Part shown: positions 5,090 through 47,510 of the stretch, one piece after another
Layout: the number at the start of each line of letters is the position of its first letter
How positions within the stretch are numbered: position 1 is the first letter of the stretch
NCBI GenBank assembly: GCA_028716665.1
Contig: JAQUPP010000001.1
Coordinates: 128,467-192,466 of the forward strand
Reading direction: 5' to 3'
Length of the DNA stretch: 64,000 nucleotides
Source of the DNA: Patescibacteria group bacterium
GTDB lineage: Bacteria; Patescibacteriota; Patescibacteriia; UBA2591; JAQUPP01
Notes under the pieces: generated by a model
Databases searched by the model: none
What the model was told of the DNA's origin: nothing
The model's input: only the letters and a program-made list of their open reading frames with translations
Position numbers and translations under genes: made by a program

Positions 5090-6349
5090 ATGACATATTT
5101 TCTTATATTAGGCAATAATCCAACTTTGTCAATAGCTGAAATCTTAAAGATACTCACAGGCCCTTTTGAGATTAAAAAAATATCAGAAGAAGTTTTAATT
5201 ATAGATTTGCCGGGAAATAAAGAAATTGATTTTGCGTATTTGGAAAACCGGTTGGGCGGAACTGTTAAGATCGGCAAAATTTTACCAAATCAGGATTTAA
5301 AAAATTTGGCTGATTTGTTTTCTGAAAAATCCACTAAAGTCAGATTCGGATTCAGTGTTTATCGTCTGGATCATCAAGCTTCAATTTCTCAAATCGTAAA
5401 TTTGATCAAAAATTTGGCTTTGAATTTGAAAAAAGACCTTAAAGAAAAAGGAATTTCTTCCCGCTGGGTCACTTCTCGCGAAGACGCTCTTTCTTCGGTT
5501 ATTGTTCAAACAAACAAGCTTTTAGAAACCGGCGCGGAATTTGTATTTTTCGCCGAGAAAAACGGATTTTTATTCGGCAGAACCTTGGCTTGTCAGGATT
5601 TTAAAGAGTACGGCTTTCGCGATTTTGGCCGGCCGAATCGGTCAATGGAACAGGGAATTTTACCGCCAAAACTGGCCAAAATTATGATTAATCTGGCCGG
5701 CGAACTGGATAAAAAAGCTTTAATTTTAGACCCTTTTTGCGGCGCGGGCACGATTTTGCAAGAAGCAGCCCTAATGGGTTATAAAAATATTATTGGCGCT
5801 GATTTAAACCCCGAAGCGATTAAAGACACTAAGGGAAATTTAGAATGGCTTGCCGAAAACAACCAATTGCCAATGACCAATTACAAAATTTTTCAGGCCA
5901 ATGTTAAAGAAATTTCTAAAAAAATAGACCCTCAATCAATTGATTTAATTGTTGCCGAGCCTTATTTGGGTCCGACCAAAATTTCCAGTTTAAAAGCTCA
6001 ATTGCCGATTATAATGTCTAAATTATCTGATTTATATCTTGGCGCTTTTAAAGAATTTCAAAAAATTTTAAAACCAAACGGGCAAGTGGTGATGATTTTT
6101 CCGATTTATCAGGATTTAAAACAAAATAATGGAATTTTTTCCGAATTTATTTTGCCGGAAATTATCCGCCCAAGGCCGACCAGCCTCGGGCTGGAAAAAA
6201 TAGGCTGGCAAATTATTAATCCCATTCCTGAAAATTTAAAAAATCATCCGATTATCAAATCAACCAAGCGGCAATCAATTATTTACGCCCGAGCCAATCA
6301 AGAAGTCTGGCGCGAAATTTTTATCTTCTCTCTCGGCAAAAATAGATAA
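5090..6349 (+). CDS. Putative RNA (N2-G/N6-A type) SAM-dependent methyltransferase, Trm11/RlmL/UPF0020-like
   Basis: The SAM-binding motif LILDPFCGAGTIL is present, together with a degenerate (N/D)PPY-like AEPYLG. Confidence 0.5.
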   Translation: MTYFLILGNNPTLSIAEILKILTGPFEIKKISEEVLIIDLPGNKEIDFAYLENRLGGTVKIGKILPNQDLKNLADLFSEKSTKVRFGFSVYRLDHQASISQIVNLIKNLALNLKKDLKEKGISSRWVTSREDALSSVIVQTNKLLETGAEFVFFAEKNGFLFGRTLACQDFKEYGFRDFGRPNRSMEQGILPPKLAKIMINLAGELDKKALILDPFCGAGTILQEAALMGYKNIIGADLNPEAIKDTKGNLEWLAENNQLPMTNYKIFQANVKEISKKIDPQSIDLIVAEPYLGPTKISSLKAQLPIIMSKLSDLYLGAFKEFQKILKPNGQVVMIFPIYQDLKQNNGIFSEFILPEIIRPRPTSLGLEKIGWQIINPIPENLKNHPIIKSTKRQSIIYARANQEVWREIFIFSLGKNR

Positions 6350-6358
6350 AAATAAAAA

Positions 6359-6385
6359 GAGGGCAAGAATATCTTTCTTGCCCTC
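6359..6385. terminator. Bidirectional intrinsic terminator (gagggcaagaa-tatct-ttcttgccctc)
   Basis: An 11-bp perfect stem is flanked by A-run/T-run between convergent genes. Confidence 0.6.
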
Positions 6386-6395
6386 AAATAAATAA

Positions 6396-7283
6396 TCACC
6401 TCTTTAAATCTTTCAATAGCTGCTTCCGATTTTCTTCTTCGATCTTTCTTTTTTTCTTTTCTTTAGCCTCTTCTTGTTCTTCTATTGTCTTCTCAGCTTT
6501 GAAATACACACTTGCTATTCTTTGTGCAAGACGTCCCTCGCTATTTGAAGTAAATTCAAATGCCTTTTTCTTATCAATAATGCGTAAACAATAATACGTC
6601 CAACTTACTGATTCATATAAGGCGGTGGTGCTGCCAGATTCTTGCGTAATAATAATTTTTTTTCTTTTGTAAACTGTTGAATAAGAAAAATAATCATTCC
6701 TTTCTTTTCTCCATACAACCCCAGCCTTTTTTAAAAGATCGAGTGTTTTTTCTACATCAGAAGATCTTAATTCAATTGCTTCTGCCATTTTAGGCCTCCT
6801 TTTTATAAGGTTTAGATTTAATCCTTTCTTTCTAAAAATCATATCAAATCCGTCTGATAGTTTAGGTGGGTCTTCCTCCAGCGCTCGATAATGAGTTTTG
6901 ATAGTATCAGTAGTCACAGGGAATGCGGGACCCCTACCTTGTTTTAATCGTTGGTAATGTCTGCGAATACAAGTATTAAGCGGTGGTTTCATCCAGATAC
7001 AAATTATTTTTTTTGCGCCAGCTTTTCTGCTAATTTCGATAATTTTTTTGCGCATATTAACAAAAGCATTTGGCATATCCACTATCACGTTTTGTTTTTC
7101 AGATAACAACTTCTTTAATTTTTTCTTAATGATTTCAAATATTTCCATCTCGGATTTATCTCTATATTGTCTTTTAATTTCATCAGCATCAAGAATTTCC
7201 AATTTAGATTTTTTCGCCAAATTCTTAGCAAAGGTAGTTTTCCCGGAAGCCGGCACTCCAACCATTATATAACAGTTCGACAT
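6396..7283 (-). CDS. P-loop kinase-like NTPase. Its C-terminal ~120-aa domain is homologous to the two small upstream ORFs, and it ends in a K/E-rich tail.
   Basis: A Walker A GVPASGKTT lies at the N-terminus (AAA_33/zeta-toxin/PNK-like). The C-terminal half aligns with ORFs 7338-7769 and 7946-8293 (AEAIELRSS...YFSYS...YYCLRIIDKK). The tail is ...EEENRKQLLKDLKR. Confidence 0.6.
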   Translation of the reverse strand: MSNCYIMVGVPASGKTTFAKNLAKKSKLEILDADEIKRQYRDKSEMEIFEIIKKKLKKLLSEKQNVIVDMPNAFVNMRKKIIEISRKAGAKKIICIWMKPPLNTCIRRHYQRLKQGRGPAFPVTTDTIKTHYRALEEDPPKLSDGFDMIFRKKGLNLNLIKRRPKMAEAIELRSSDVEKTLDLLKKAGVVWRKERNDYFSYSTVYKRKKIIITQESGSTTALYESVSWTYYCLRIIDKKKAFEFTSNSEGRLAQRIASVYFKAEKTIEEQEEAKEKKKRKIEEENRKQLLKDLKR

Positions 7284-7337
7284 CTTTTACCTCCTTTTTA
7301 CAAAACGAATAAGAATGTTTTTTACTCCCTAAAATAG

Positions 7338-7769
7338 CTATAGTTTCAGTTTTTTTAACAATTCCTCTCGAGCATTGTTTTCTGTTTTTTCGCGACCCCC
7401 TTCTTCAACTGCCCATTTTTCATTTTCTATTTTTACAATACTCTCCCTGATTTTTTTAACAATTAACGAGAGCTGATGGGAGATTTCGAATAATATTTTT
7501 TGTGCCCAAGAGTCTCCATAATAGTCCCCGGCAGACTTAAATTCATTTTTCCCATCAAGAACACAAAAATAATAATAGCTTATCGAGCTGGTGTCATATA
7601 TACCACTTGTATCTTGGCAACCTTCTATAATAATAAATTCTATTCCATTATCAGTTGTTGAGAAATTATCTTTCCCATTTTCCCTCCATTTATCAGTCTC
7701 GAGTTTTGTTAATTTTTTCATGATTTCTCGTGTTTCTGAACTACCTAATTCAATTGGTTCTTTTACCAT
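7338..7769 (-). CDS. Small protein of unknown function, paralog of the kinase C-terminal domain
   Basis: MVKEPIELGSSETREIMKKL...SYYYFCVLDGKNEF...ELLKKLKL aligns to the kinase C-terminal domain and to the 115-aa ORF. Confidence 0.5.
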   Translation of the reverse strand: MVKEPIELGSSETREIMKKLTKLETDKWRENGKDNFSTTDNGIEFIIIEGCQDTSGIYDTSSISYYYFCVLDGKNEFKSAGDYYGDSWAQKILFEISHQLSLIVKKIRESIVKIENEKWAVEEGGREKTENNAREELLKKLKL

Positions 7770-7945
7770 CTTTCCTCCTTTCTTGTAAAAGGCGAGAATA
7801 TTTTTTCTCGCCCCCCTTTAAATAACTTATACTTCCAACTTTTTTATTAATTGCTCTTGAGCTCTTTTTTCTGCCCGTTCTTGTTGTCTTTTCTCTCTTC
7901 TAAGCTTTTTTTCTTCAACTATTTTTTGTTGATCATTTTTTTTCT

Positions 7946-8293
7946 TTAGTTCCTCTTTAGCCCTATGAAAGAGAGACGCAATTCTCTGCCCCCTACTTTT
8001 TCTGCTATAAAAAATCTACCTTCTCCGTCAAGAATCATTAAGGTATATTCTACTACCCATTTTTGACCACTACCGCTGTCATAATCTGCATAGTAGCTAG
8101 AAATATCTTTAATAGTGATTTCCATCTTCCCGCTAATCGTTAATACAAGAGAGTCTTTGTCTATTCTTTCTATTTTATTGAACTTATCAATCCCAATTTT
8201 TTCTAACTTCTCCAAAATTTCTTTTATTTTTATATCACTTAATTTGATCGGTTCTTTTGCCATTTTCTCCTCCTTTTTAAAGAACAATTTCAT
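7946..8293 (-). CDS. Small paralog of the same family, apparently frameshifted. A conserved K/E-rich tail is encoded in another frame down to 7827.
   Basis: MAKEPIKLSD...MILDGEGRFF is family-like. After a T6 run (plus-strand A6 at 8009-8014) the conserved ...GQRIASLFHRAKEEL...EQLIKKLEV tail continues in a different frame and ends at a stop at 7827-7829. Confidence 0.5.
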   Translation of the reverse strand: MKLFFKKEEKMAKEPIKLSDIKIKEILEKLEKIGIDKFNKIERIDKDSLVLTISGKMEITIKDISSYYADYDSGSGQKWVVEYTLMILDGEGRFFIAEKVGGRELRLSFIGLKRN

Positions 8294-8312: not shown

Positions 8313-8341
8313 ACTATAGCACAAATTTAATTTTTGTCAAG
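8313..8341 (-). promoter_or_regulatory. Sigma-70-like promoter for the small-paralog/kinase operon (minus-strand TTGACA ... TTGTGCTATAGT)
   Basis: The reverse complement reads TTGACA followed by ~17 nt and then an extended -10 TGTGcTATAGT. Confidence 0.45.
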
Positions 8342-8373: not shown

Positions 8374-8401
8374 TTGACATATTTTATGGGTATTATATAA
8401 T
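8374..8401 (+). promoter_or_regulatory. Sigma-70-like promoter TTGACA-N16-TATAAT upstream of the TrmB-like regulator
   Basis: There are exact consensus hexamers, and the -10 lies ~35 nt upstream of the ATG at 8437. Confidence 0.55.
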
Positions 8402-8436: not shown

Positions 8437-9171
8437 ATGCAAATAGAAAAAGTTTTAGAACAATTTAATCTGAATAAAAAAGAAATTAGTGTCTATCTCA
8501 CCTGTTTGGAGCTGGGTCCTTCTACGGCCGGAGTGGTCGCCCAGAAAGCAGGCATAAAAAGAACCAGCGCTTATGATATTTTGGGAGACCTGATAAAAGT
8601 CGGGCTTATTACTCATACTATAAAAAATAATAAAAAATATTTTTTAGCCGAAGATCCGGAAATACTTAAAAAAATTCTTCACGAAAAAGAGAGAGCATTA
8701 GAAGAAGTTCTCCCTCAATTGAAATCTATTTATAATATCCCGGGCATAAAACCAAAAACAAAATTTTATGAGGGAGTTTCCGGGGCAAGAAACATATTTA
8801 GAGAAACATTATCTTGCCGAAAAAAAGAAGCTATGGCCATTCTTCCGTCAGTAGACATTTATGATCTTATCGGAGTGGATTTTGCCAAAGATTATGTCGC
8901 CGCTCGAACGAAATTAAAAATAAAAAGCAGAACCCTGCGCGTTAAGACACGCGAGTCAGAAGAAAAATATTTTTTTCAACACAAAGAACAACTTCGGGAG
9001 ATGCGATATCTTCCAAAGTCAATCACTTTTTATTCAACTATTCTAATTTGGGATGATAAAGTGGCAATTATTACTTCCAAAAAAGAAAGTTTCAGTTTTT
9101 TAATCGAAAGTCAAGAATTCAGCCAAACCATGAAAGCATTATTTGAAATGCTTTGGCTGCAATCAAAATAA
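8437..9171 (+). CDS. TrmB-family HTH transcriptional regulator
   Basis: The N-terminal winged helix (LTCLELGPSTAGVVAQKAGIKRTSAYDILGDLIKVGL) is typical of TrmB, and the 244-aa length fits. It is a paralog of 25201-25944. Confidence 0.65.
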   Translation: MQIEKVLEQFNLNKKEISVYLTCLELGPSTAGVVAQKAGIKRTSAYDILGDLIKVGLITHTIKNNKKYFLAEDPEILKKILHEKERALEEVLPQLKSIYNIPGIKPKTKFYEGVSGARNIFRETLSCRKKEAMAILPSVDIYDLIGVDFAKDYVAARTKLKIKSRTLRVKTRESEEKYFFQHKEQLREMRYLPKSITFYSTILIWDDKVAIITSKKESFSFLIESQEFSQTMKALFEMLWLQSK

Positions 9172-9186
9172 TAATTGAAAAAATTT

Positions 9187-9270
9187 ATGCGCATCGGAAT
9201 TGACGCTCGTCCCAGTACTAGATTCGCCGGTAGGCAAATCAGTACGGGACATCGCTTTGTTAAGAGATAG
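9187..9270 (+). pseudogene. Remnant of a glycosyltransferase 5' end (MRIGIDAR...) that terminates after 27 codons
   Basis: It shares aaatttatg-cgcatcggaattgacgctcg with the starts of the two GT genes downstream, and then diverges into a GC-rich hairpin. Confidence 0.4.
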
Positions 9271-9314
9271 GAATAAGTAAGTTGAGTTTAATTGAGTTTT
9301 AATTGAAAAACTTT

Positions 9315-10451
9315 ATGAGAATAGGCATAGACGCTCGATTTTACGGCCCGACGGGCAAAGGAATCGGGCGCTACACTCAGGAACTTATCAAAAATCTTGA
9401 AGAAACCCGCCAAAATTTTGCTTCACAAAACTTAGGCGGGCAAAAAGATGATTATTTTATTTTCCTCCGCCAAGAGGGCTTTAATTTATATCATCCTCAA
9501 AACCCTCATTTTCACAAGGTTTTGGCCGATTATCCCTGGTATTCCTGGCAAGAGCAGATATTATTCCCCAGACAACTCGCCTCTCAACGCCTTGATTTGG
9601 TTCATTTTCTCCACTTTAATGTTCCTCTGTTTTATCTCGGCCGGTTTGTAGTGACGATTCATGATTTGACTCATAATCAAACTACTCCAAAAGCTTCAAC
9701 ACACTGGAAATCAATTTTTTATTTTAAAAAAATTATTTATTATTTGATTATTAAAAATGCCATGCAACGGGCGGAAAAAATTATCACGGTTTCTAATTTT
9801 ATTAAAGATTCAATTGTGAAACAATATAAAATTAATCCAAAAAAAATCTCTGTAACTTATGAAGCGACTGATATGGCGCCAAAGATTTCAGACTTTGAAC
9901 CGGTTTCGGAGCAGATCCCGGATAATTATTTATTATATATCGGCAATGCTTACCCGCACAAAAATTTGGAACGTTTAATCAAGGCTTTTAAAATTGTTTT
10001 ATCAAAACACCCGGGGATTCGTTTAATTTTAGTCGGGAAAATGGATTATTTTTATCATAATTTGCAAAAATTAACGCAAGAATTGGGGTTGGAAGAAAAA
10101 GTTATTTTTTCCGGTCAAGCTTCTGATGAAAAATTAGCTTGGCTTTATAAAAATGGTTTGGCTTATGTGTTTCCTTCTTTATCTGAGGGATTTGGCCTGC
10201 CCGGTTTGGAAGCAATGAAGTTCGGTCTACCGGTAATCGCCTCAAAACATCAACCCTTGCCTGAAATTTATGGTTCAGCTGCTTTATATTTTAATCCTAA
10301 AAACATAGAAGAAATGGCTGCAACCATTAATCAAGCTATAGAAAACAAAAATCTTCGCGAAGAACTAATTCAAAAAGGATTTGAACAAATTAAAAAATAT
10401 TCTTGGGAAAAATGCGCCCAAGAAACAGAAGAAATTTACAAAAATTTATGA
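9315..10451 (+). CDS. Glycosyltransferase family 1 (GT4-like)
   Basis: The C-terminal EX7E-type region FPSLSEGFGLPGLEAMKFGLPVIAS is present. The start was chosen at MRIGIDARF by comparison with the paralog. Confidence 0.8.
   Translation: MRIGIDARFYGPTGKGIGRYTQELIKNLEETRQNFASQNLGGQKDDYFIFLRQEGFNLYHPQNPHFHKVLADYPWYSWQEQILFPRQLASQRLDLVHFLHFNVPLFYLGRFVVTIHDLTHNQTTPKASTHWKSIFYFKKIIYYLIIKNAMQRAEKIITVSNFIKDSIVKQYKINPKKISVTYEATDMAPKISDFEPVSEQIPDNYLLYIGNAYPHKNLERLIKAFKIVLSKHPGIRLILVGKMDYFYHNLQKLTQELGLEEKVIFSGQASDEKLAWLYKNGLAYVFPSLSEGFGLPGLEAMKFGLPVIASKHQPLPEIYGSAALYFNPKNIEEMAATINQAIENKNLREELIQKGFEQIKKYSWEKCAQETEEIYKNL
9343..9671 (+). repeat. Direct repeat copy 1 (~329 bp) of a recent tandem duplication
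   Basis: It is near-identical to 10476-10804, with about four mismatches seen by eye. Confidence 0.8.
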
Positions 10452-11008
10452 AAATCGGAATCGACGCCAGATTCTACGGCCCGACGGGCAAAGGAATCGG
10501 GCGCTACACTCAGGAACTTATCAAAAATCTTGAAGAAACCCGCCAAAATTTTGCTTCACAAAACTTAGGCGGGCAAAAAGATGATTATTTTATTTTCCTC
10601 CGCCAAGAGGGCTTTAATTTATATCATCCTCAAAACCCTCATTTTCACAAGGTTTTGGCCGATTATCCCTGGTATTCCTGGCAAGAGCAGATATTATTCC
10701 CCAGACAACTCGCCTCTCAACGCCTTGATTTAGTTCATTTTCTCCACTTTAATGTCCCTCTGTTTTATCTCGGCCGGTTTGTGGTGACGATTCATGATTT
10801 GACTTTATTGCAATACCCGACTCAACATAAAAATTCTTTAGCGAAATTTATATATTCTTTCAAACACGGATTTTTTATTTTAATTTTGAAAAATGCTCTG
10901 CGACGGGCGGAAAAAGTCATTACTGATTCGGAAAAATCGAAACAAGATTTGATTAAAAATTTCCATATAAAATCAGAAAAAATAAAAGTTGTTTATTTGG
11001 CCTGTTAG
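10448..11008 (+). pseudogene. Chimeric or truncated glycosyltransferase paralog. Its N-terminal 120 aa are nearly identical to the upstream GT, it diverges in the middle, and it stops before the catalytic C-terminal domain.
   Basis: It is 201 aa long. Bases 10476-10804 are about 99% identical to 9343-9671, and the ATG overlaps the upstream stop (ATGA). Confidence 0.5.
10476..10804 (+). repeat. Direct repeat copy 2 (~329 bp)
   Basis: It is near-identical to 9343-9671. Confidence 0.8.
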
Positions 11009-25139: not shown

Positions 25140-25210
25140 TGGACCTAGGCAGAATCGAACTGCCGTCTCCGCAATGCGAATGCGGCGTATTACCACTATA
25201 CTATAGGCCC
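25140..25210 (-). tRNA. tRNA-Ala (anticodon CGC)
   Basis: The cloverleaf carries the G3:U70 Ala identity pair, anticodon loop UUCGCAU and T-loop UUCGAUU. Confidence 0.85.
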
Positions 25211-25944
25211 TTGTTTGCCAAACCTTGCCAGGTTAAATCAAATAAAATTCTGACAAAATTGGCGATTTTTTTATCTTCAATGGAAACAATGAAAATTTCA
25301 TCTTGCAGAGAACCGAGTAAAATTTTATCGCCGACAATACCTAGATCACTGCCAGACGGTTTTATATTTTTAGGCAAAAAACGAATTTGGTGAAACGGCC
25401 CTTGATTTCTTTTAGTATAATCTTTAGCAACCGGCTCGTCAAATAAAATTTCTCTAACCGAGAAGTTTTTATTTTTCTGTTTTTTTTCAAAAGGTTTGGC
25501 CATTTTGGGGTATCGTTTGTCAGCCTCGCTTATTGTACTAATAAATAATATTTCACCCTGATATTCTAAGATATCCTGATAAGCCCGATCCGGCGCGTCC
25601 TCGCCTTCAAAAATCATAATTTTTGGTTTTTGTTTTTCTAAATTATGGATAGCCATTAATTGAGGCAATAAACTTTGAAAATCCAAAATTTGTTCATTTA
25701 AAGAATTTAAAATTTTTTTTGGCGGCTGGGCGATAAAAACTTGGGTCCGTTCTTTGAGCGAGCGGGTGACTAATCCTTTTTCGGCCAGTAAATCCAAAAT
25801 TAAATAAGTAGTTGGACGTTTGACTCCGCTTTTTTTGCTGATTTCCATGGGCGTGCCGGCGCCAAGTTCCAAGGCAGCCAAATAAACAGCTGATTCTTTT
25901 TCCGCCAGACCGAATTTAGTTAATTGTTCCTTTAAAGTGTTCAT
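25201..25944 (-). CDS. TrmB-family HTH transcriptional regulator (paralog of 8437-9171)
   Basis: LAALELGAGTPMEISKKSGVKRPTTYLILDLLAEKGL is a TrmB-type winged helix. The stop region abuts the 5' end of the tRNA. Confidence 0.65.
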   Translation of the reverse strand: MNTLKEQLTKFGLAEKESAVYLAALELGAGTPMEISKKSGVKRPTTYLILDLLAEKGLVTRSLKERTQVFIAQPPKKILNSLNEQILDFQSLLPQLMAIHNLEKQKPKIMIFEGEDAPDRAYQDILEYQGEILFISTISEADKRYPKMAKPFEKKQKNKNFSVREILFDEPVAKDYTKRNQGPFHQIRFLPKNIKPSGSDLGIVGDKILLGSLQDEIFIVSIEDKKIANFVRILFDLTWQGLANKGL

Positions 25945-34902: not shown

Positions 34903-35135
34903 AATTTAACCCTTGTTCAGGGTTGTTTTTTATTATCAAGCGAGTGAGAGAAAAGCAATCCGCTAATGCGAGAGTGCTTTTCCGAGCAAGCGCAGATATC
35001 AAAGGTTTAATATCTTTATTATACCACTAATTTTTCGCTTGTCAAGAGGATAAGTTTATGTTAAGATTAAATGATAAAAATATAGAAAAGAGTATGAAAA
35101 GTAAAATATTTTCAAAAAAATTAACCAAAAAGATG

Positions 35136-39287: not shown

Positions 39288-42200
39288 TTGGCTTTTAAAT
39301 TTTTTATGAAAGCTAAAAAATTATTAAATTTTAGAATTTTAACCGGGGCGGTTTTATTGGTAATGTTTTTATCGATAATGACTCCGGTTTTATTTTATCC
39401 AAAACAAGCTCAAGCCCAAATGGTAGTTCATGATCCGCTTAAAGTGATAGTGGATAAGGTTTGGGAATTTTTAAAATTAGCTTGGAAAAATGGCGCGGGA
39501 ATCGCTTACAAAAACGCGATTAACACTTATACCAGTCAAATAGCCACGCAAACTGCCGAATGGGTGGCCTCGGGAGGAAAAGGACAAACCCCAATGTTTA
39601 TCGCCGATCCGGACTATTGGGTTAAGGTGGGAGATAATATGTTGGGAGAGTTTATTGACGCGGCCGCAGGACCGAAAGGCTTTTTCGGACAAAGCTTGTG
39701 CGATCCGATTGATCCGACTCTCCGTTTGAACATTTTAATTTCTTTTGATCCGCTTTATCGTCAAAAAACTTGGACACAAGAAAACAAATGTTCTTTCACT
39801 AAAATAAGACAAAGAATCAAAGAGGCAAGTCAAAAAAATTTAATTGAATTTTCCGTGGATTTGAAAGAAGGACCAGTTGGCAGATATCAGTCCAGTTTTA
39901 AATCCATTTTTGAAGCGGACAGTAAATTAAATGAATGGCAGACCGCTGATTGGCCGGGCGGGGATCACAAAACAAATCTGAAAATGATTGCTGATAAAAT
40001 TACAAGCATTCAAAAAGATTTTTCTCAAACCGTTGAGGATTTAAAAGCCAATAAAAACAATACTTCATTAATTCAAAAAGAAAATATTCAAGCTGATTTT
40101 CGAAACAGAATCAATAATAATGTTTGGGGACCGGACGAACCTCCGGCGACACAATATGGACAATATTTGAAATTTTGGCAAAAAAATACGTCAGCCTGCG
40201 CGGCCAAAAATAAAGAAAATTTTTGTCAGGATTTGAATTGTTATAATATCTGCAGCAAAACTGATTGTTTGGGTAATTTTACCAATTGTTTGGCTTATAC
40301 CAATAGAGCCAATCTTTATGTTAAACAATTAATAGATTGGACCAACCAATTGACAGGCATGATTAATAAAACTGATTTTACCGCTTTGACAACCAAAGAA
40401 GAGGTTACCTTGGAAGATATCGGCAGAATGTATTCGGAAGATAATGATTTGAGAATTACTTTAAGTCTCCAATCCAGTTTGATGGAAAAACAAGCCAATG
40501 CGGTATCTAAATCTCAATATTTTCAATCTCTCCAGGGCAGGCTTAATGATGTGACAACAAAAATTTCCGGTTTGACTAAAACTCCGTCATCATTGGTTGA
40601 TACGGCGGCTCGGGAGGCGGTAAAAAATGGCACAGCCAGTCCGATGCAATATACCGGTGTGGCGGTGGCCGACGCAATTGGCATATTTACCAATACTTTA
40701 ATTGATAAACTTTTAAAACAAATTTTTGAGAAAGGCTATAATGTTAATGTTTCACCGGAGGCGGTTAGAACACAGCCATTTTTAAGCGGAGAAGGAGGGT
40801 TGATTACTTTGGGTTCAAACGCGGGTGGATCGCTTTTTTCCGACTTGACAGTGGCTTCTTTGAAAAAAGGCGGGGAAATATCAATTTATGACGAATACTC
40901 AGTTTGCCCACAAGATCCGAAATACGCTTTGCCGAGCAATTGCGTAATGGATTCGGGAATGGTTAGAGCACTTGAAGACAATTTGACTTTAAAACAAGCC
41001 ATGGATAAAAATTTAATTCATTCGGATTGGTTGGTCAGCGGACGAAGTAAAAAAGACGCAGCTACTGATTATTTGGGCCGCTACAGTTTAACCAATATTA
41101 AAAAATTGCGCGCGATCAGAGTTTTTCCATTAGGTTTGGAAATTGCGGCGCAAAAAATTTATGACGGTAAATTGGGTGATGCTCAATTTACTTTAAAAGA
41201 TATTGTTGACGGATTTGATAAAGTCAGTTCAGACGGTGATTGTCGGATTTATATTGATCCTACTAAAACTCCGAAAGAAGGAAGTATGGAAATTCCATGT
41301 CCGGTTTGGGACAATGATCATTGTTATACTAATGTAGGGAAAACAAAAGAATCATTTTCCGCTTCACCTTTTTGTCATTTGGTTGATCCGAATTGGGTTT
41401 TAAAAGCGCCGTCTTTTCAATGTGAAACCATTGCTTATTCGGCTATTCCTTTACCCGGTTCCAACCAACGTCAGGAAACCTGTATTGATATGAAAGATTG
41501 TATTCACGAAGACGCGAATGGGAAATGCGATACTTGGGGTTATTGCACCAGAGAAAAAAATATTTGGCGGGCAGGCGGAAATTCTTGCGACAGCCAATTT
41601 AATACTTGTCAAACTTATACTAAAACCAGCGATAAAAAAAGTTCTTCTTATTTGGCCAATACTTTAAATTTTGCTAATTGCAGCGTCAATGATGTGGGTT
41701 GTAAATGGTATTGTTCCGATTATCAAAAAAGTTTTGGGGCCAATAAGGCAGATATTTGGGCTTGCGAAAAACCGGGAGTATCATTGACTTGCATAGACAG
41801 AGATGAAAGCGGCCAATGTACAACTTATGGGAAAAATGGTACTGAGCAAAATCCTACCCAAAACGCCATTTTCTTTAATCGCAATGTTGAAAAATGCGAC
41901 AAAAATTCAGAGGGCTGCCATGAATATATTCGGACTGCTACTGATTCAAAAATTTATTTAAAAACCGCGCCAGAATGGATGGATTGTGAAGGTGACAGCC
42001 CGAGTTTGGAATGTTCTAATTTCGCCACCAGTTGTGAAAAAGAAGATGTCGGTTGCGGATTATATGCGCCAATCAATAATGATCCGACTATCCCGGGAAT
42101 TGTTTCTGAAGGAAATCGTTGTTCGGAAAAATGTGTTGGAACGAATTATTTCAAAGAAATGAAGACAAATTTTGAAACCAATCAGCCCGACGTGCTGCTA

Positions 42201-45200
42201 ATTCCTTCTTTAGCCAAATCTTGTTCTGCGCCGGGTTGCGAAGAATTTACCAATTTAGATGAAGTGGCAAAGGGTGGTGAAGGAATACAATATTATTCTT
42301 ATATTCGAACTTGCCAAAAACCGGATACGCAAACTTGCGGTTATTATTACACTTGGGTTGGTTCAGATACCAATGGTTATCAATTAAAAAAATATTATTT
42401 AACAGCTGGGGCAGGAGGACCGGCAGAAATTGACAGCCCGTCTGCTCAATTCGGAATATGTGATAAAGACCAAATTTTTACTAATCCTCATTGCAAAGAA
42501 TTTTATGACGCGGATGGAAAAGTAAGTTATCGTATTTACGAAAATACTATTACTTGCTCTGATGATTGTCATCCTTTAAGGATAACTATTCCAACTGGTT
42601 TTGACTCAACTAAATGTTCAAATAGCGGCGGGACATGGGATAATGGAAATTGTATTTATCAAACCATTCCTACTGAAAGCGTTTCTTGTAGCAAGGCCAA
42701 TATCGGCTGCCGAGAATATAAAGGCAACGCCGCCAATAATGTTCGCCAAATTTTAAAAAGTGATTTTGAAGACGCGAAGGACCAAGGTTGGAATGGGACG
42801 CCTGTTAATGAATCAGGAGTTTATACGGGTCATTCATTGCAGAGCCCATCATTTATGATTTCTCACTCAGTTTCTTTAACGAGCGAAAAATCTTATATAC
42901 TTTCTTTCTGGGCCAGGGGCAATGGTGACTACTACTCATTTTTTACAAAAGATAAAGAAACTGTTTGGTTTAATAATAAAGATAAAACAACTATTTTTTC
43001 CGATGATTGGCAAGAAATTAAATTGGGGCCAATTTATTCGAACAATCAATTATCTTCTGGTGATTGGGAACTAAATATTAGAGGTCCTAATGGATTTTAT
43101 GTTGACGATATTATTTTAAAAGAAGTTAAAGACGATTTGAATTTAATCAAAGATTCTTGGAAAACAAAAATGCCTGCTGGATGCACTGTCTCGGGTTGCC
43201 AGGCATATAAAGATCAAAACAACAAACTTCAATATCTGACTTCATTTGCTCGTCTTTGTGATGAAAAATCAGTCGGCTGCGAAGCTTTGATTGACACCAA
43301 AAATTCCACTTCGCCGTTTGCTGAAACATTTAAAAATGGAACAACGGTTCCGGACGACAGTCCGATTTATTTGATCAATGATTCCAAAAAATCCTGTCAA
43401 GAAACAAACAAGGGTTGTCAAAGATTCGGTTTGCCGACGCTTTCTTCCGAAGATACGGTAGTTGGTTGGTCTGATTTATATTTAAGAAATAATCCTGATA
43501 ATTATTCTGCCAAGATTCTTTGCGACAGCGCGAATACCGGTTGCGAAGAATATAAAATCAACGGTTCCGGCAGTTCGGTTTATTTCAAAGATCCGGGCGA
43601 AAATCTTTGCGAATGGCGCGAAAAAATAATGGTCGGAGGAGAAAATAAAACAGGTTGGTTCAAAAAGGGAACCAGCCAGCCTTGCTATTACAACACAGAC
43701 AACACTCCATATCAAATCAATGGTCTTTATAGTATTAAAACAAGTGCTGAACCTGATTATAAAAATATAGCCGGAGTTTGTCCTCAAAAACAAACCGGTT
43801 GCACGCAATTTACTGATTTTGGAGCCACGGTTGGCAATAATTTAATTAATGGCGGAGATTTTGAAACCGGAAATTTGGGTCAATGGACACCTGCCTATGG
43901 TTCAGTAGCAAAACCTGATACAATTCAGCTTTTAAGCGGATTTGGTCAACCTGCTAATTTTTTAAGAATTGAAAGCGACGGTTCAAGTCCTCGTTTTGGC
44001 GTAGCTCAATACCCGGAATTTAATGATTTGCCAAGTGGCGCCAGTTTTAATTTTTCGGCTAAAATTAAATTAGATAATAATCTTACTGATGACGTAAAAG
44101 CGACTGTTTATTTGGACTTATTTTATCGGGGCAATAAAGAATTTGACAATCAAGGTTGTATTGTAAAAATTGACGACAAGTCTGTTCCCCGAGATTGTTC
44201 AGATTCGGAAAGCGCAATTGTTCGGACGTGTGCCGACCAAGGGAAAGATAACTGTACTGGTTCTAATGATTTAGAAAAATCTTATGTACAATGTTTAAAA
44301 GATGTTAATTTGGGAAATGTAAATGGTTGGTGTTTTAATTGGGTTTATGGCTATCAGCCGGCTGTCGGTTGGGGAGGAATTGATACAACCAATAAAGATT
44401 GGATAACTTTGAATAAAACAATTGTTGCCGGCGGAAAAGATAATCCTAAAAATTTGCCTTTATATAAAATAATGGTATCCCCTGTTTTAGTCAAAGGAAA
44501 TGGGACTGCGGGAGTTATTGATATCACAAATAGTAGTGTATATGCTGATTTTGATGATATCAGTTTGAAACAAATTCAAAATTATTATTATCTTGATGAC
44601 GACAAGTTGGATCAATCTTCCTGTCAAGGCAATGTTTCACAAAAACAAGATTGCATTCTCTTACTTGATTCAAGTTTAAAAAATGCCGATGGTCAAGTTT
44701 TGGCCACTTATAATACTTTTGCCACTTACAAAAAATCGGAAGCAACTAATCCAAAATACGGATTGGTTTCGCCGGTTGATTGTACAAAAGGAGTACCACA
44801 AACTGGCAAAAGTTGTACAGATGCTGAATATACAAATACAGATTATTGTAAATATTGTTCGTCTTACGGACAAATTAAAAATGACGCGAATACAATTCTT
44901 AAAGTCCGGCAAGATAGAACTTGCGGCGAATGGCTGACTTGCACCAGCTCGCGTTCAGAATGGGATAAAACTAGCGGTTCTTTTAAAGATATTTGTGAAG
45001 CGGTTGGCCGTTGCGACAAATTGATCGGCACTGGAAATGCGAATCAATGCGGTCATCTGATTTGGGAAAATGACCCGAAAGTTTTAGCCGATAATATATA
45101 TCAAAACCGAGATGTTTCTTGGAGCGGGATGGATTACGCCGGCCACTCAATTTACAATATGTACCCGATTGAAAGATTATGGGCCAAGGAATATAACGGT

Positions 45201-47510
45201 GTTTACAGATTAAGTTATCTTGATACAAACGGGAGCGTTTATGGAGTCGATGGAATTAAACTTAAATCGTCGATACAACCAGATAGTGAGATTAATTCAA
45301 CGCAATTGACAAAATCTACTATTGGGAAAACCTGTCGAGCTTATCCGGAAAAAGATTCGCCATTTAAGAGTGACGTGGAAAAATATTATTTTTCCGATGT
45401 TAATGTTTGCAATGATACGAATAATACCGGCGAAAATAAAGATTGCCAATGCAGTTACACTAAAGATGATTATGGCGGAACAACAAAATATTATAATACG
45501 GCGCCGACAACAACGGGAATTTGTGTGAGCAGCAGTGATGGCAAGGAAACAGGAGATACAACTCAGAATATTTGCGTGAGCACTCAAAATGATCATACTC
45601 CGGGAATTTGGAAAACTTTAACCAAACAGACAAACGCGCTTGGTCTGAGAGGTTTTTGTTTGGAACCGGATCCATCAAAACCTGCTGATTTAAATGCTTG
45701 CATTACCTGGTGGCCCGGCGCGGCAATCGGCGACCCGGATATTTATAATCAATTCACTTCTGCCGGCTATCAAGCCGCGAATGAGCGACAATGGTATTGT
45801 GCTAAAAAAATTGAAGTTCCAGTAATAGATTTACAATCAGAGGGTAATTTAACAATGACTTCTCATAACGATTGTAAATCTGGAGAAACATGGAAATGCG
45901 CTTGGCAGAAAGGTAATATATGTAATGATGTGGAATGGTGGCCACATAATTGGAGATCGGATAGTTGTTCAACAAATATAACAGGTATTTATTCTGTTAG
46001 TGAGCTTGATAATTGTAATTTAGATTGTCCCGCTCAAGCGATATTTTCTTTGGGTAATAGCTCATCAAATAGAGTCAAAAATTTAAAGGCGGACATGGTT
46101 GAAAGTATTAATATTAATGTTTGTTCTTGTACCAGCGCTAATGGTGCTGGCGATACGAATACCTGTTCAAGCGGTTCCTGTACAGATATTAGTGGGAATG
46201 ATTCAGGAAGTCTTTGGGGCTGGGATCCTCTGGTATTATCTTTAAATGATTCTAATTCTTGGACATCATCTTACGGTTCGGGGAATGGCGTAAAGATAAT
46301 TGCTAACTGGAAAGAAGATCAAACTTTTGATTCTTTGGTATTAAAAGCAGCAGATGAAAAGAATTTTGGATACTTTAAAATAAATTCAATCACTTTAAAA
46401 ATTAAAAATGATTGTGAACAAGTTGTTAAAATTGCGGATACTGACAGAATGGCCACCGCTTACACTAATCGGGTAAATAATATTAAAAATTATTTTAATG
46501 ATTCTGTGGATGGTAAAACAGAGTTTGAAAATTGTACTCCTTGGGGCGCGGTTAAAAATTGGGATACATCAACAGTTTATATTACAGAATCATCAAATAC
46601 TTGTGAAATAAATAAGGGTGCTTTATATGATTATACGGGCAACATAAAAGACTCTGTTTTTGCTAAAAAACTTTTTGCTCGATCTTTTGATGTCAAAACA
46701 TTTTCTTTGTCTGATTTTCAATATCATACGGGAAGCTTATATACTGTTTTGGATTCTACTAATACTCCTCAAGTGGCGGCCCCAACCTGTGATGAATTAA
46801 CGAATGTTTGTAAAATGGATTCTGAGGGGGCTTCAAATCATATTACTATCGGTAATGTCTATAAAGATGGAGAGAACATTACTCGTGTTCAGTCATATTT
46901 GGCAATTTTGAAATTTTATGCTTGGGCAAATGAAAATCAAATGCCGATCAGGGAAATTTCCATTGATTGGGGAGATAGAGCTGGCGAAGTTAATCCTTAT
47001 TCGGTAATAGCTAAAAATCACAAACAGGCTTGTTGTGAAGGAAGTGGCAGTTGTGCAAATCTCGGAGTTGCATGTAAAGAAGGAATCAATGCCGGCAAAG
47101 CTTGCAATAAAGATTCAGATTGTTTAAAAGAATATGCTTTATGCACAAATAAAAAATGTCAGGCCGGGGTTAATCAAAATCAGGCTTGTGATAAACCAGA
47201 AGATTGTCCGATTTATAGCGAATGTCAAAATATGGTTAATTTAAATTTCGGCAATATTCCTGATGCCTGCACAAATAATTATTTCCAATTTACTCATATT
47301 TATCAATGCGCCGGCGAAGGTTCACCGGGTTGGAATGCCTTTAAGTGTTCCAATACTTGTTGTTTTAAACCTCGCGTTTATGTTCAAGATAATTGGGGTT
47401 GGTGTAATAATGGAAAGGAGAATGTATTAAAATCATCTAATGGTAAATGTAATGGATTGGGGATAGCAGGCACACCATTCGGAGGCTTAATAATTATTAG
47501 ACCGCAATAA
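39288..47510 (+). CDS. Giant (2,740 aa) Cys-rich secreted/anchored surface protein with CBM4/9-like (galactose-binding-like) domains
   Basis: It has a signal/TM N-terminus and more than 100 Cys. Two regions match the CBM pattern (DFEDA..GWNG...; NGGDFETGNLGQWT...). Confidence 0.7.
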   Translation: MAFKFFMKAKKLLNFRILTGAVLLVMFLSIMTPVLFYPKQAQAQMVVHDPLKVIVDKVWEFLKLAWKNGAGIAYKNAINTYTSQIATQTAEWVASGGKGQTPMFIADPDYWVKVGDNMLGEFIDAAAGPKGFFGQSLCDPIDPTLRLNILISFDPLYRQKTWTQENKCSFTKIRQRIKEASQKNLIEFSVDLKEGPVGRYQSSFKSIFEADSKLNEWQTADWPGGDHKTNLKMIADKITSIQKDFSQTVEDLKANKNNTSLIQKENIQADFRNRINNNVWGPDEPPATQYGQYLKFWQKNTSACAAKNKENFCQDLNCYNICSKTDCLGNFTNCLAYTNRANLYVKQLIDWTNQLTGMINKTDFTALTTKEEVTLEDIGRMYSEDNDLRITLSLQSSLMEKQANAVSKSQYFQSLQGRLNDVTTKISGLTKTPSSLVDTAAREAVKNGTASPMQYTGVAVADAIGIFTNTLIDKLLKQIFEKGYNVNVSPEAVRTQPFLSGEGGLITLGSNAGGSLFSDLTVASLKKGGEISIYDEYSVCPQDPKYALPSNCVMDSGMVRALEDNLTLKQAMDKNLIHSDWLVSGRSKKDAATDYLGRYSLTNIKKLRAIRVFPLGLEIAAQKIYDGKLGDAQFTLKDIVDGFDKVSSDGDCRIYIDPTKTPKEGSMEIPCPVWDNDHCYTNVGKTKESFSASPFCHLVDPNWVLKAPSFQCETIAYSAIPLPGSNQRQETCIDMKDCIHEDANGKCDTWGYCTREKNIWRAGGNSCDSQFNTCQTYTKTSDKKSSSYLANTLNFANCSVNDVGCKWYCSDYQKSFGANKADIWACEKPGVSLTCIDRDESGQCTTYGKNGTEQNPTQNAIFFNRNVEKCDKNSEGCHEYIRTATDSKIYLKTAPEWMDCEGDSPSLECSNFATSCEKEDVGCGLYAPINNDPTIPGIVSEGNRCSEKCVGTNYFKEMKTNFETNQPDVLLIPSLAKSCSAPGCEEFTNLDEVAKGGEGIQYYSYIRTCQKPDTQTCGYYYTWVGSDTNGYQLKKYYLTAGAGGPAEIDSPSAQFGICDKDQIFTNPHCKEFYDADGKVSYRIYENTITCSDDCHPLRITIPTGFDSTKCSNSGGTWDNGNCIYQTIPTESVSCSKANIGCREYKGNAANNVRQILKSDFEDAKDQGWNGTPVNESGVYTGHSLQSPSFMISHSVSLTSEKSYILSFWARGNGDYYSFFTKDKETVWFNNKDKTTIFSDDWQEIKLGPIYSNNQLSSGDWELNIRGPNGFYVDDIILKEVKDDLNLIKDSWKTKMPAGCTVSGCQAYKDQNNKLQYLTSFARLCDEKSVGCEALIDTKNSTSPFAETFKNGTTVPDDSPIYLINDSKKSCQETNKGCQRFGLPTLSSEDTVVGWSDLYLRNNPDNYSAKILCDSANTGCEEYKINGSGSSVYFKDPGENLCEWREKIMVGGENKTGWFKKGTSQPCYYNTDNTPYQINGLYSIKTSAEPDYKNIAGVCPQKQTGCTQFTDFGATVGNNLINGGDFETGNLGQWTPAYGSVAKPDTIQLLSGFGQPANFLRIESDGSSPRFGVAQYPEFNDLPSGASFNFSAKIKLDNNLTDDVKATVYLDLFYRGNKEFDNQGCIVKIDDKSVPRDCSDSESAIVRTCADQGKDNCTGSNDLEKSYVQCLKDVNLGNVNGWCFNWVYGYQPAVGWGGIDTTNKDWITLNKTIVAGGKDNPKNLPLYKIMVSPVLVKGNGTAGVIDITNSSVYADFDDISLKQIQNYYYLDDDKLDQSSCQGNVSQKQDCILLLDSSLKNADGQVLATYNTFATYKKSEATNPKYGLVSPVDCTKGVPQTGKSCTDAEYTNTDYCKYCSSYGQIKNDANTILKVRQDRTCGEWLTCTSSRSEWDKTSGSFKDICEAVGRCDKLIGTGNANQCGHLIWENDPKVLADNIYQNRDVSWSGMDYAGHSIYNMYPIERLWAKEYNGVYRLSYLDTNGSVYGVDGIKLKSSIQPDSEINSTQLTKSTIGKTCRAYPEKDSPFKSDVEKYYFSDVNVCNDTNNTGENKDCQCSYTKDDYGGTTKYYNTAPTTTGICVSSSDGKETGDTTQNICVSTQNDHTPGIWKTLTKQTNALGLRGFCLEPDPSKPADLNACITWWPGAAIGDPDIYNQFTSAGYQAANERQWYCAKKIEVPVIDLQSEGNLTMTSHNDCKSGETWKCAWQKGNICNDVEWWPHNWRSDSCSTNITGIYSVSELDNCNLDCPAQAIFSLGNSSSNRVKNLKADMVESININVCSCTSANGAGDTNTCSSGSCTDISGNDSGSLWGWDPLVLSLNDSNSWTSSYGSGNGVKIIANWKEDQTFDSLVLKAADEKNFGYFKINSITLKIKNDCEQVVKIADTDRMATAYTNRVNNIKNYFNDSVDGKTEFENCTPWGAVKNWDTSTVYITESSNTCEINKGALYDYTGNIKDSVFAKKLFARSFDVKTFSLSDFQYHTGSLYTVLDSTNTPQVAAPTCDELTNVCKMDSEGASNHITIGNVYKDGENITRVQSYLAILKFYAWANENQMPIREISIDWGDRAGEVNPYSVIAKNHKQACCEGSGSCANLGVACKEGINAGKACNKDSDCLKEYALCTNKKCQAGVNQNQACDKPEDCPIYSECQNMVNLNFGNIPDACTNNYFQFTHIYQCAGEGSPGWNAFKCSNTCCFKPRVYVQDNWGWCNNGKENVLKSSNGKCNGLGIAGTPFGGLIIIRPQ

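Follow-up and report, generated by a model that had tools for sequence, protein, structure and literature searches.

In PSTK and Kti12, a flexible linker connects an N-terminal domain to a C-terminal domain (CTD) that binds tRNA, and both domains are required in one chain for tRNA-stimulated ATPase activity (PMC6511879). The residues of PSTK identified as important by mutagenesis are located in the P-loop, 11-GxP(G/A)xGK(S/T)-18 (G14, K17, and S18), and at D41, R116, and R120 (PMC2275090). A locus with a comparable plan is described here from contig JAQUPP010000001.1, a metagenome-assembled genome (MAG) of Patescibacteria (candidate phyla radiation, CPR); the whole stretch of DNA analysed, called the window, comprises 64 kb. 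The locus contains three genes, C, B, and A, whose products are annotated by NCBI as 'hypothetical protein' and 'ATP-binding protein'. A carries a kinase domain at its N-terminus and, as its C-terminal 130 residues, the third copy of a predicted alpha/beta domain of about 100 aa that also occurs in B and C. Tentatively, A is read as a PSTK/Kti12-style kinase whose appended domain would target a macromolecular, probably RNA, ligand, with the free paralogues B and C as possible modulators.

The likeness of A to PSTK comprises the best solved-structure match, the form of the P-loop, an aspartate equivalent to D41, an RxxxR motif, and the order of N-terminal kinase, linker, and charged C-terminal module. 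Among solved structures, PSTK of M. jannaschii (3ADB/3A4L) is the best match by a wide margin (E 3.9e-9, residues 5-158), and the kinase domains of polynucleotide kinases (PNK) are weaker at 0.006-0.03. The Walker A sequence of A, G9-VPASG-K15-T16, fits the PSTK form GxP(G/A)xGK(S/T). D34 aligns with the Walker-B/catalytic D41 of MjPSTK (D35 in T4 Pnk), and the lid motif R108-H-Y-Q-R112 (RxxxR) aligns with R116...R120. The DxTN motif that follows strand 3 is VIVD69-M-P-N72 in A and VIVDDTN in PSTK, with the D and N kept; the Kti12-like protein P0007 has D-D-L-N at this position. Family searches agree with the Walker-A kinase-like NTPase proposed in the initial annotation, since Pfam AAA_33 (PF13671) matches residues 6-131 at 7.8e-20 with 72.1 bits against a cutoff of 27. 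In NCBIfam, PSTK ranks first (TIGR03574; 2.9e-16, positions 3-117 of 249), with 59.7 bits against an equivalog cutoff of 290.5, followed by bacterial Pnkp at 7.8e-8, far under its equivalog cutoff. Matches to the PHROG 'polynucleotide kinase' (2.6e-13) and to the Pfam shikimate kinase family were also obtained. The kinase domain has a net charge of +21 and a pI of 10.1. Judged by its motifs and family matches, A is apparently an active kinase of the DxTN clade (PNK/PSTK/Kti12) and a new, divergent member of this known clade, orthologous to neither PSTK nor Kti12.

In contrast to PSTK, the C-terminal module of A is an unrelated predicted alpha/beta domain with a helix, not a three-helix tRNA-binding CTD. 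A is bacterial, whereas PSTK is archaeal and eukaryotic, and no link of A to selenocysteine was seen. Free-standing CTD paralogues, as present at this locus, are not a feature of PSTK. Kti12 is an Elongator-associated, tRNA-dependent ATPase whose CTD delivers tRNA in cis. A resembles it in the two-domain plan and in a Pfam KTI12 match of the N-terminus (7.7e-11, 42 bits against a cutoff of 22), but the match covers profile positions 5-123 of 271 and stops there, and the CTDs are non-homologous. To our knowledge, Elongator is absent from bacteria. The polynucleotide 5'-kinases (T4 Pnk, bacterial Pnkp, and mammalian PNKP) belong to the same DxTN/AAA_33 clade and are basic, nucleic-acid-end enzymes. 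In contrast to them, A lacks a partner domain of the phosphatase or ligase type and is not adjoined by genes of RNA repair (Hen1, Rnl, RtcB), and its similarity to them in the PDB is weaker than that to PSTK.

Word-indexed searches for non-self relatives of A, B, and the kinase domain returned one Kti12-like protein (E 0.19) and no close bacterial relative of the kinase. This Kti12/PSTK-like protein, of 263 aa, is encoded on L010 (JGI contig Ga0374083_0847501), a contig rich in Arf/Ras/Roc small GTPases, which suggest an Asgard-type archaeon as its source. The start of A is placed at M1 (7283), behind AGGAGG-N6-ATG, giving 295 aa, and that of NCBI at M7 (7265), giving 289 aa. M1 is favoured by the Shine-Dalgarno (SD) spacing and by the PSTK alignment, as M7 would remove most of beta-strand 1.

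The shared domain links A to its two small neighbours. BLASTP aligns B with residues 166-295 of A at 7e-7 (31% over 91 aa) and with C at 7e-9 (32% over 84 aa), while C and the CTD of A reach only 0.014, and only once a frameshift in C is corrected. Leave-one-out hidden Markov models (HMMs), searched against the 1309 six-frame open reading frames (ORFs) of the window, always ranked the omitted copy first among the non-training sequences (A 1.5e-18, B 3e-15, C 3e-9), and no fourth copy was found in the 64 kb. The similarity aligned by eye in the initial annotation is thus significant by both methods, and on this evidence the three copies are real paralogues. The similarity between copies is located in the domain core, outside the low-complexity tail. 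Even though the copies share only about 30% identity, their tails (that of C frameshift-corrected) end in register as (E/Q)L(L/I)K(K/D)L(K/E)x-COOH. The K/E-rich tail, which had been ascribed to every copy, is present in A and in B, where the helix ends ELLKKLKL. ORF C does not contain it, as EQLIKKLEV is encoded in the -1 frame. The cores differ in charge, with +5 for the CTD of A, -1 for C, and -7 for B (pI 4.6).

The junction inside A retains the signals of a gene start. The linker ...LNLIKRRPK-M166AEAIEL is encoded by AAAAGGAGGCCTAAAATG, which contains a complete AGGAGG-N6-ATG and mirrors the starts of B and C; a strong SD sequence AGGAGG lies 4-6 nt 5' of the ATG in each of C, B, and A. 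The arrangement AGGAGG-N4-10-ATG occurs at seven sites in 64 kb, counting both strands. Four of these are starts of proxy genes, two others (8263, which is Met11 of C, and 19365) lie inside extended ORFs and are read as true starts, and the seventh is Met166 of A. The retained signal points either to a recent fusion of the kinase with a small gene through loss of a stop codon, or to separate translation of the C-terminal module.

The shared domain has no match in Pfam, NCBIfam, PADLOC, or PHROGs. A profile of six domain sequences found nothing among the PDB sequences, nor did the six members when scanned singly against Pfam. The three-copy profile, searched against 1.84 billion representative proteins, recovered only the three copies and three repeat-protein artefacts. 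This search missed homologues from sister strains (about 40 bits) that are present in the collection, and its sensitivity limit is roughly 45 bits; the apparent lineage restriction, or 'orphan' status, thus means that nothing scores above roughly 45 bits. The statement in the initial annotation that the domain could not be placed in a known family holds for the four family collections and the PDB, but homologues do exist in the sister strains. A scan of genome contigs gave one spurious match of 22 residues, a scan of viral contigs gave nothing, and tblastn against phages gave one weak P-loop match. AlphaFold2 models of B and of full-length A agree on the element order, which is a short strand, a helix, four strands, and one long helix. 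The charged tail helix is the only confident part of the models (pLDDT 75-85). Foldseek with the model of A returned only generic P-loop kinases and AAA+ ATPases.

The sister-strain loci have the domain without the kinase. The adjoining UPF0020-type methyltransferase gene (5090-6349), used as a query against metagenome contigs, retrieved four loci with 86-94% identity, and a fifth locus was obtained from another MAG (L005-L009 together). In blastn comparisons, synteny with the window breaks at 6324 on the left and resumes at 9173 (L006) or 9313 (L007), at glycosyltransferase genes. In the sister loci, 0.4-0.5 kb replaces the 2.85 kb of the window and comprises one minus-strand gene of 83-89 aa. 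Its product is a homologue of the shared domain, with BLASTP values of 9e-7 to the CTD of A and 3e-5 to B, and a profile made from the window copies alone gives it about 40 bits (E ~3e-11). It is without the N-terminal KEPIEL strand, the SGxY(D/E)(S/T)xS hairpin loop, and the charged tail. The dN/dS of this gene is 0.16-0.21 (three sequence variants), compared with 0.08-0.14 for the adjacent methyltransferase, which indicates a functional gene under purifying selection. No kinase homologue was found in the fetched sister DNA (1.5-17 kb per locus, five loci). The conservation of the domain alone, with no kinase in this DNA, indicates that it has a function independent of the kinase.

The features of the locus are collected in Table 1. 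The three minus-strand ORFs of the initial annotation are all present, and the promoter that it placed at 8313-8341 corresponds to a promoter-like site at 8340-8313. The stand-alone three-gene cassette did not hold, as the divergent TrmB gene is part of the same strain-variable segment. The promoter-like site would serve C and possibly also B and A. No such site was found by the promoter scan in the C-B or B-A intergenic gap, so B and A would most simply be transcribed by read-through from the C promoter, or from an unrecognised promoter; several weak promoter-like sites (9-10 of 12) lie inside the coding regions of C and B. The hairpin between C and B was not called by the terminator scan, and by its predicted folding it may be a weak terminator or attenuator. 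Elsewhere in the window, the three tRNAs are ordinary Rfam tRNA matches, and a very large ORF of 2740 aa extends over 39288-47510 (+).

Table 1. Features of the C-B-A locus and its surroundings (positions in the window).
Feature	Positions	Strand	Description	Evidence
Strain-variable segment	6325-9172		about 2.85 kb with A, B, C, and TrmB	blastn synteny breaks, ORF maps of L005-L009
Intrinsic terminator	6359-6385	-	after A, 11-bp stem then T-run; between A and the convergent methyltransferase gene	
Genes C, B, A	6396-8293	-	head to tail	ORF map
Gene A	6396-7283	-	295 aa; kinase domain and third copy of the shared domain	ORF, Pfam
Shared domain, copy 3	6399-6788	-	A residues 166-295; basic core, K/E-rich helix ending QLLKDLKR	
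Internal start signal of A	6786-6800	-	AGGAGG (6800-6795) and ATG of Met166 (6788-6786), in frame	
Kinase domain	6789-7283	-	A residues 1-165	Pfam AAA_33, NCBIfam PSTK, PDB PSTK
Gene B	7338-7769	-	143 aa; intact free-standing copy; AGGAGG 7779-7774	ORF, BLASTP
Hairpin	7787-7816	-	just 3' of the shifted-frame stop of C; -15.9 kcal/mol, z -3.3	
Former 3' part of C	7827-7988	-	-1 frame, QRIASLFHRAKEEL...EQLIKKLEV*; 7988-7830, stop 7829-7827	
Gene C, current ORF	7946-8293	-	115 aa; core of the shared domain, without tail	
G5 run	7989-7993	-	breaks the reading frame of C	
Promoter-like site	8313-8340	-	TTGACA-16-TATAGT with extended -10 TG	promoter scan, 11/12
Promoter-like site of TrmB gene	8374-8401	+	perfect consensus, for the divergent gene	promoter scan
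TrmB-family gene	8437-9171	+	HTH regulator, 244 aa; divergent, within the variable segment	

Gene C differs from B in that its reading frame is broken. The ORF ends '...GGRELRLSFIGLKRN*', and the shifted-frame sequence QRIASLFHRAKEEL...EQLIKKLEV aligns with AQRIASVYFKAEK...QLLKDLKR of A. The G5 run is identical in three further assemblies, two of them NCBI MAGs and the third an independent Logan assembly (L001-L003, 100% over 2.3 kb), and is thus a property of the population, not an error of one assembly. Programmed -1 frameshifting was rejected, since no X XXY YYZ slippery heptamer is present at the frameshift and the downstream RNA structure is not significant (z -0.44 against shuffled sequences). 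The frameshift is read as a recent truncating mutation. The start of C is most probably M11 (8263), behind AGGAGG 8274-8269, and not 8293, which leaves a truncated protein of 105 aa.

The long form in the window and the short form in the sister strains have a coding identity of 30-43% (amino acid), compared with about 90% (nucleotide) in the flanks. The sister protein is like B and C in its N-terminal half and like A in its C-terminal half. An origin of the sister allele by recent deletion between C and the CTD of A was rejected, because the coding identity is far from the 90% of the flanks. From these comparisons, the two forms are more likely old, divergent alleles at a recombination-prone locus, in line with a duplicated 5' fragment of a glycosyltransferase gene and a hairpin repeat of about 95 bp at the borders. 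The sister gene has a promoter that is alignable with the C promoter, and the terminators are alike only in architecture. The duplicate comprises 38 nt of the glycosyltransferase start (MRIGIDAR), at 9172-9209, directly after the TrmB stop codon, and at 9300-9337. At the right border of the island, the glycosyltransferase duplications thus point to recombination. Flanking repeats were also considered as a sign of mobile insertion, and none was convincing; the 38-nt duplication at 9172 and 9300 was the only notable one. The TrmB of the island is only 35% identical to a TrmB paralogue on L009 (11104-11853, -), and is by this comparison a distinct family member, not a relocated copy. A further TrmB paralogue occurs in the window at 25201-25944 (-) and is about 32% identical to that of L009.

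Several other observations concern the borders. Tandem glycosyltransferase paralogues with near-identical N-termini are located at 9303-10451 and 10403-11008. The short-read contigs L001 and L002 also break at the right border. The repeat of about 95 bp is intergenic, forms a long imperfect hairpin (-28.8 kcal/mol), and resembles a small MITE/REP-like mobile element. One copy lies in the window (34927-35020), one in L006 (4982-5075), and two in L007 (9199-9292 and, in reverse, 10865-10922), with a partial copy in L008 (824-922). In sister strains it sits at the 3' end of the methyltransferase gene and alters the C-terminus of the enzyme, and it is absent there in L005.

The preferred reading, held with reserve, combines the kinase and the domain in the manner of PSTK and Kti12. 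The locus would be a strain-specific accessory operon, composed of a promoter, C, B, A, and a terminator, with a divergent TrmB regulator. A comprises an N-terminal DxTN/AAA_33 kinase, whose active site appears intact, then a short basic linker and, at its C-terminus, a predicted alpha/beta domain with a long charged helix. This C-terminal module occupies the place of the tRNA-binding domain of PSTK and Kti12, and would tether the kinase to a macromolecular ligand, most probably RNA. The kinase may then phosphorylate a hydroxyl of the ligand, or binding of the ligand may switch on ATP hydrolysis. B, intact and with an acidic core, and C, truncated, would be free copies of the targeting module. 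By competing for the same ligand or partner, or by associating with A through the terminal helix, they would probably tune how the kinase reaches its ligand. The fusion would be younger than the domain family, with a single copy of 83-89 aa working alone at the sister locus. RNA is the probable ligand because of the kinase class and the strong positive charge, as +21 for the kinase and +5 for the CTD core fit nucleic-acid binding. The sequence shows the paralogy, the kinase class with its motifs, the frameshift, the internal start signal, the limits of the island, and selection on the sister gene; the binding of a ligand, its identity as RNA, and a modulating role of B and C are inferred.

A number of points weigh against this interpretation. 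An acidic or neutral core, as B and C have, is odd in an RNA binder, and A has Pro in place of the T of the DxTN motif. The three-helix CTD of PSTK and Kti12 is no homologue of the C-terminal module, which has an hhalign probability of 0.2% against the Kti12-like protein. The AlphaFold2 models of B and full-length A, from alignments of four rows each, are of low confidence (pLDDT 57), and Foldseek against the PDB, one of the checks proposed in the initial annotation, matched these models of the domain to no known fold (best E 0.13). The kinase cassette was found in one population only. Its position in a strain-variable island with its own regulator is a pattern seen more often among conflict or accessory genes than in RNA metabolism. 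The binding of RNA or tRNA is a prediction.

The main rival is a toxin-antitoxin or defence-like module, and it is rather unlikely. In such a module, A would be a growth-arresting toxin kinase of the zeta/AAA_33 type, autoinhibited in cis by its CTD in the manner of fused toxin-antitoxins, the acidic B (and formerly C) would neutralise it in trans, and TrmB would regulate the locus. Strains with flanking genes about 90% identical differ in whether they have the segment, an HTH regulator is dedicated to it, and small acidic proteins are encoded upstream of a strongly basic kinase (pI 4.6 for the B core, +21 for the kinase). The copies have diverged fast, and the distribution of the family is near-orphan. 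An AAA_33-type kinase of 195 aa is reported to be a toxin of the epsilon/zeta-like kind (PMC5728571), which agrees with such a role. The locus resembles epsilon/zeta and PezAT in the order of regulator, small protein(s), and P-loop kinase, in its strain variability, and in a marginal match of A to Pfam Zeta_toxin (PF06414; 2.4e-5), just above the cutoff with 24.3 against 22.3 bits. However, this match is far weaker than those to AAA_33 and PSTK and covers the generic P-loop core only. No epsilon-, PezA-, or ParD-like antitoxin is present, as searches of Pfam, NCBIfam, and PADLOC place neither B nor C in a family; the small proteins are instead paralogues of the kinase's own CTD, and PSTK, not the zeta toxins, is the closer relative of the kinase. 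HipBST offers a conceptual likeness, with a separate polypeptide matching a domain of the kinase that controls it, and an HTH protein as the third component; HipS is a piece of the kinase that acts in trans as an antitoxin (PMC6581861, PMC10627512). HipT, in contrast, is a Ser/Thr kinase of the Hanks-like/HipA fold, not of the P-loop kind, and is unrelated in sequence, and its domain was split off from the kinase, whereas here it is duplicated alongside a fused copy. Searches of PADLOC-DB v2 also speak against a defence system, with no meaningful match for A (best VakA at 0.0014, 17 bits, and AriA at 0.0067, P-loop only) and none for B, C, the sister protein, or TrmB. B and A are 54 nt apart without overlap, the regulator is divergent and not co-transcribed, and no mobile-element genes flank the island. 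The sister homologue is under purifying selection with no kinase there to neutralise.

It is also unlikely, and somewhat more so, that the genes form no integrated system at all. The locus would then be a hotspot at which a lineage-specific small gene duplicated and is now decaying, and the kinase would be an unrelated neighbour joined to one copy when a stop codon was lost by accident. C carries the frameshift in every assembly, the gene-start signal is still present at the fusion junction, and one short copy is enough for the sister strains. The duplicated glycosyltransferase fragments and the repeat of about 95 bp at the borders are consistent with recombination activity. In contrast, A (295 codons) and B (143 codons) are long intact ORFs in a genome of 35% GC and have strong SD sites. 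The C-terminal motif is kept in register across copies of about 30% identity, which argues for long-term selection on all three, including the fused one.

A further proposal is still less probable. A would be a PSTK-like kinase with a cis sensor or autoinhibitor domain, and the free paralogues would act as trans antagonists or decoys. This would be an undescribed kinase control module of a fused toxin-antitoxin or defence-like type, based on a lineage-specific fold in a CPR bacterium and exchanged as an allele at a recombination hotspot.

Bacterial P-loop protein kinases exist, such as HprK/P and the BY-kinases. A self-contained phospho-regulatory module, in which the shared domain is a substrate or pseudosubstrate with a Y-(D/E)-(S/T)-x-S acceptor loop, is nevertheless improbable, since the detectable relatives of A (PSTK, Kti12, PNK, shikimate, gluconate, and dephospho-CoA kinases) are not protein kinases, and an autophosphorylation motif is not known for this class. 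In its favour, all three kinase-linked copies have the SGxY(D/E)(S/T)xS loop and the kinase-less sister homologues do not, although the gap in the sister proteins could simply be a shorter hairpin. The role of kinase substrate or decoy that the initial annotation suggested for the domain is thus not supported in that form. For the free copies, a competitor or decoy role may apply; the core of B is acidic (pI 4.6), and the kinase carries +21. Characterised members of the PNK/PSTK/Kti12 class act on nucleic-acid-linked or small-molecule hydroxyls and not on proteins (PMC2275090), PSTK and Kti12 carry a tRNA-binding, substrate-recruiting domain at the same position (PMC6511879), and the free domain is under purifying selection in five sister loci with no kinase in the 1.5-17 kb fetched.

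The new elements of the locus are a kinase fused to an unclassified, lineage-specific domain with tandem free paralogues, and the presence of kinase-plus and kinase-minus natural alleles. The impact is limited by the single population and by a function deduced from sequence. The locus seems to show a domain fusion under way, with a junction that keeps a ribosome-binding site and a start codon, and the kinase-free allele in close relatives provides a natural comparison. If the preferred reading is true, the locus would be a CPR example of the PSTK/Kti12 design, in which the recruiting domain is replaced by an unrelated, lineage-specific fold that is also made in free form. It would then represent a testable case within the largely unannotated accessory genome of Patescibacteria.

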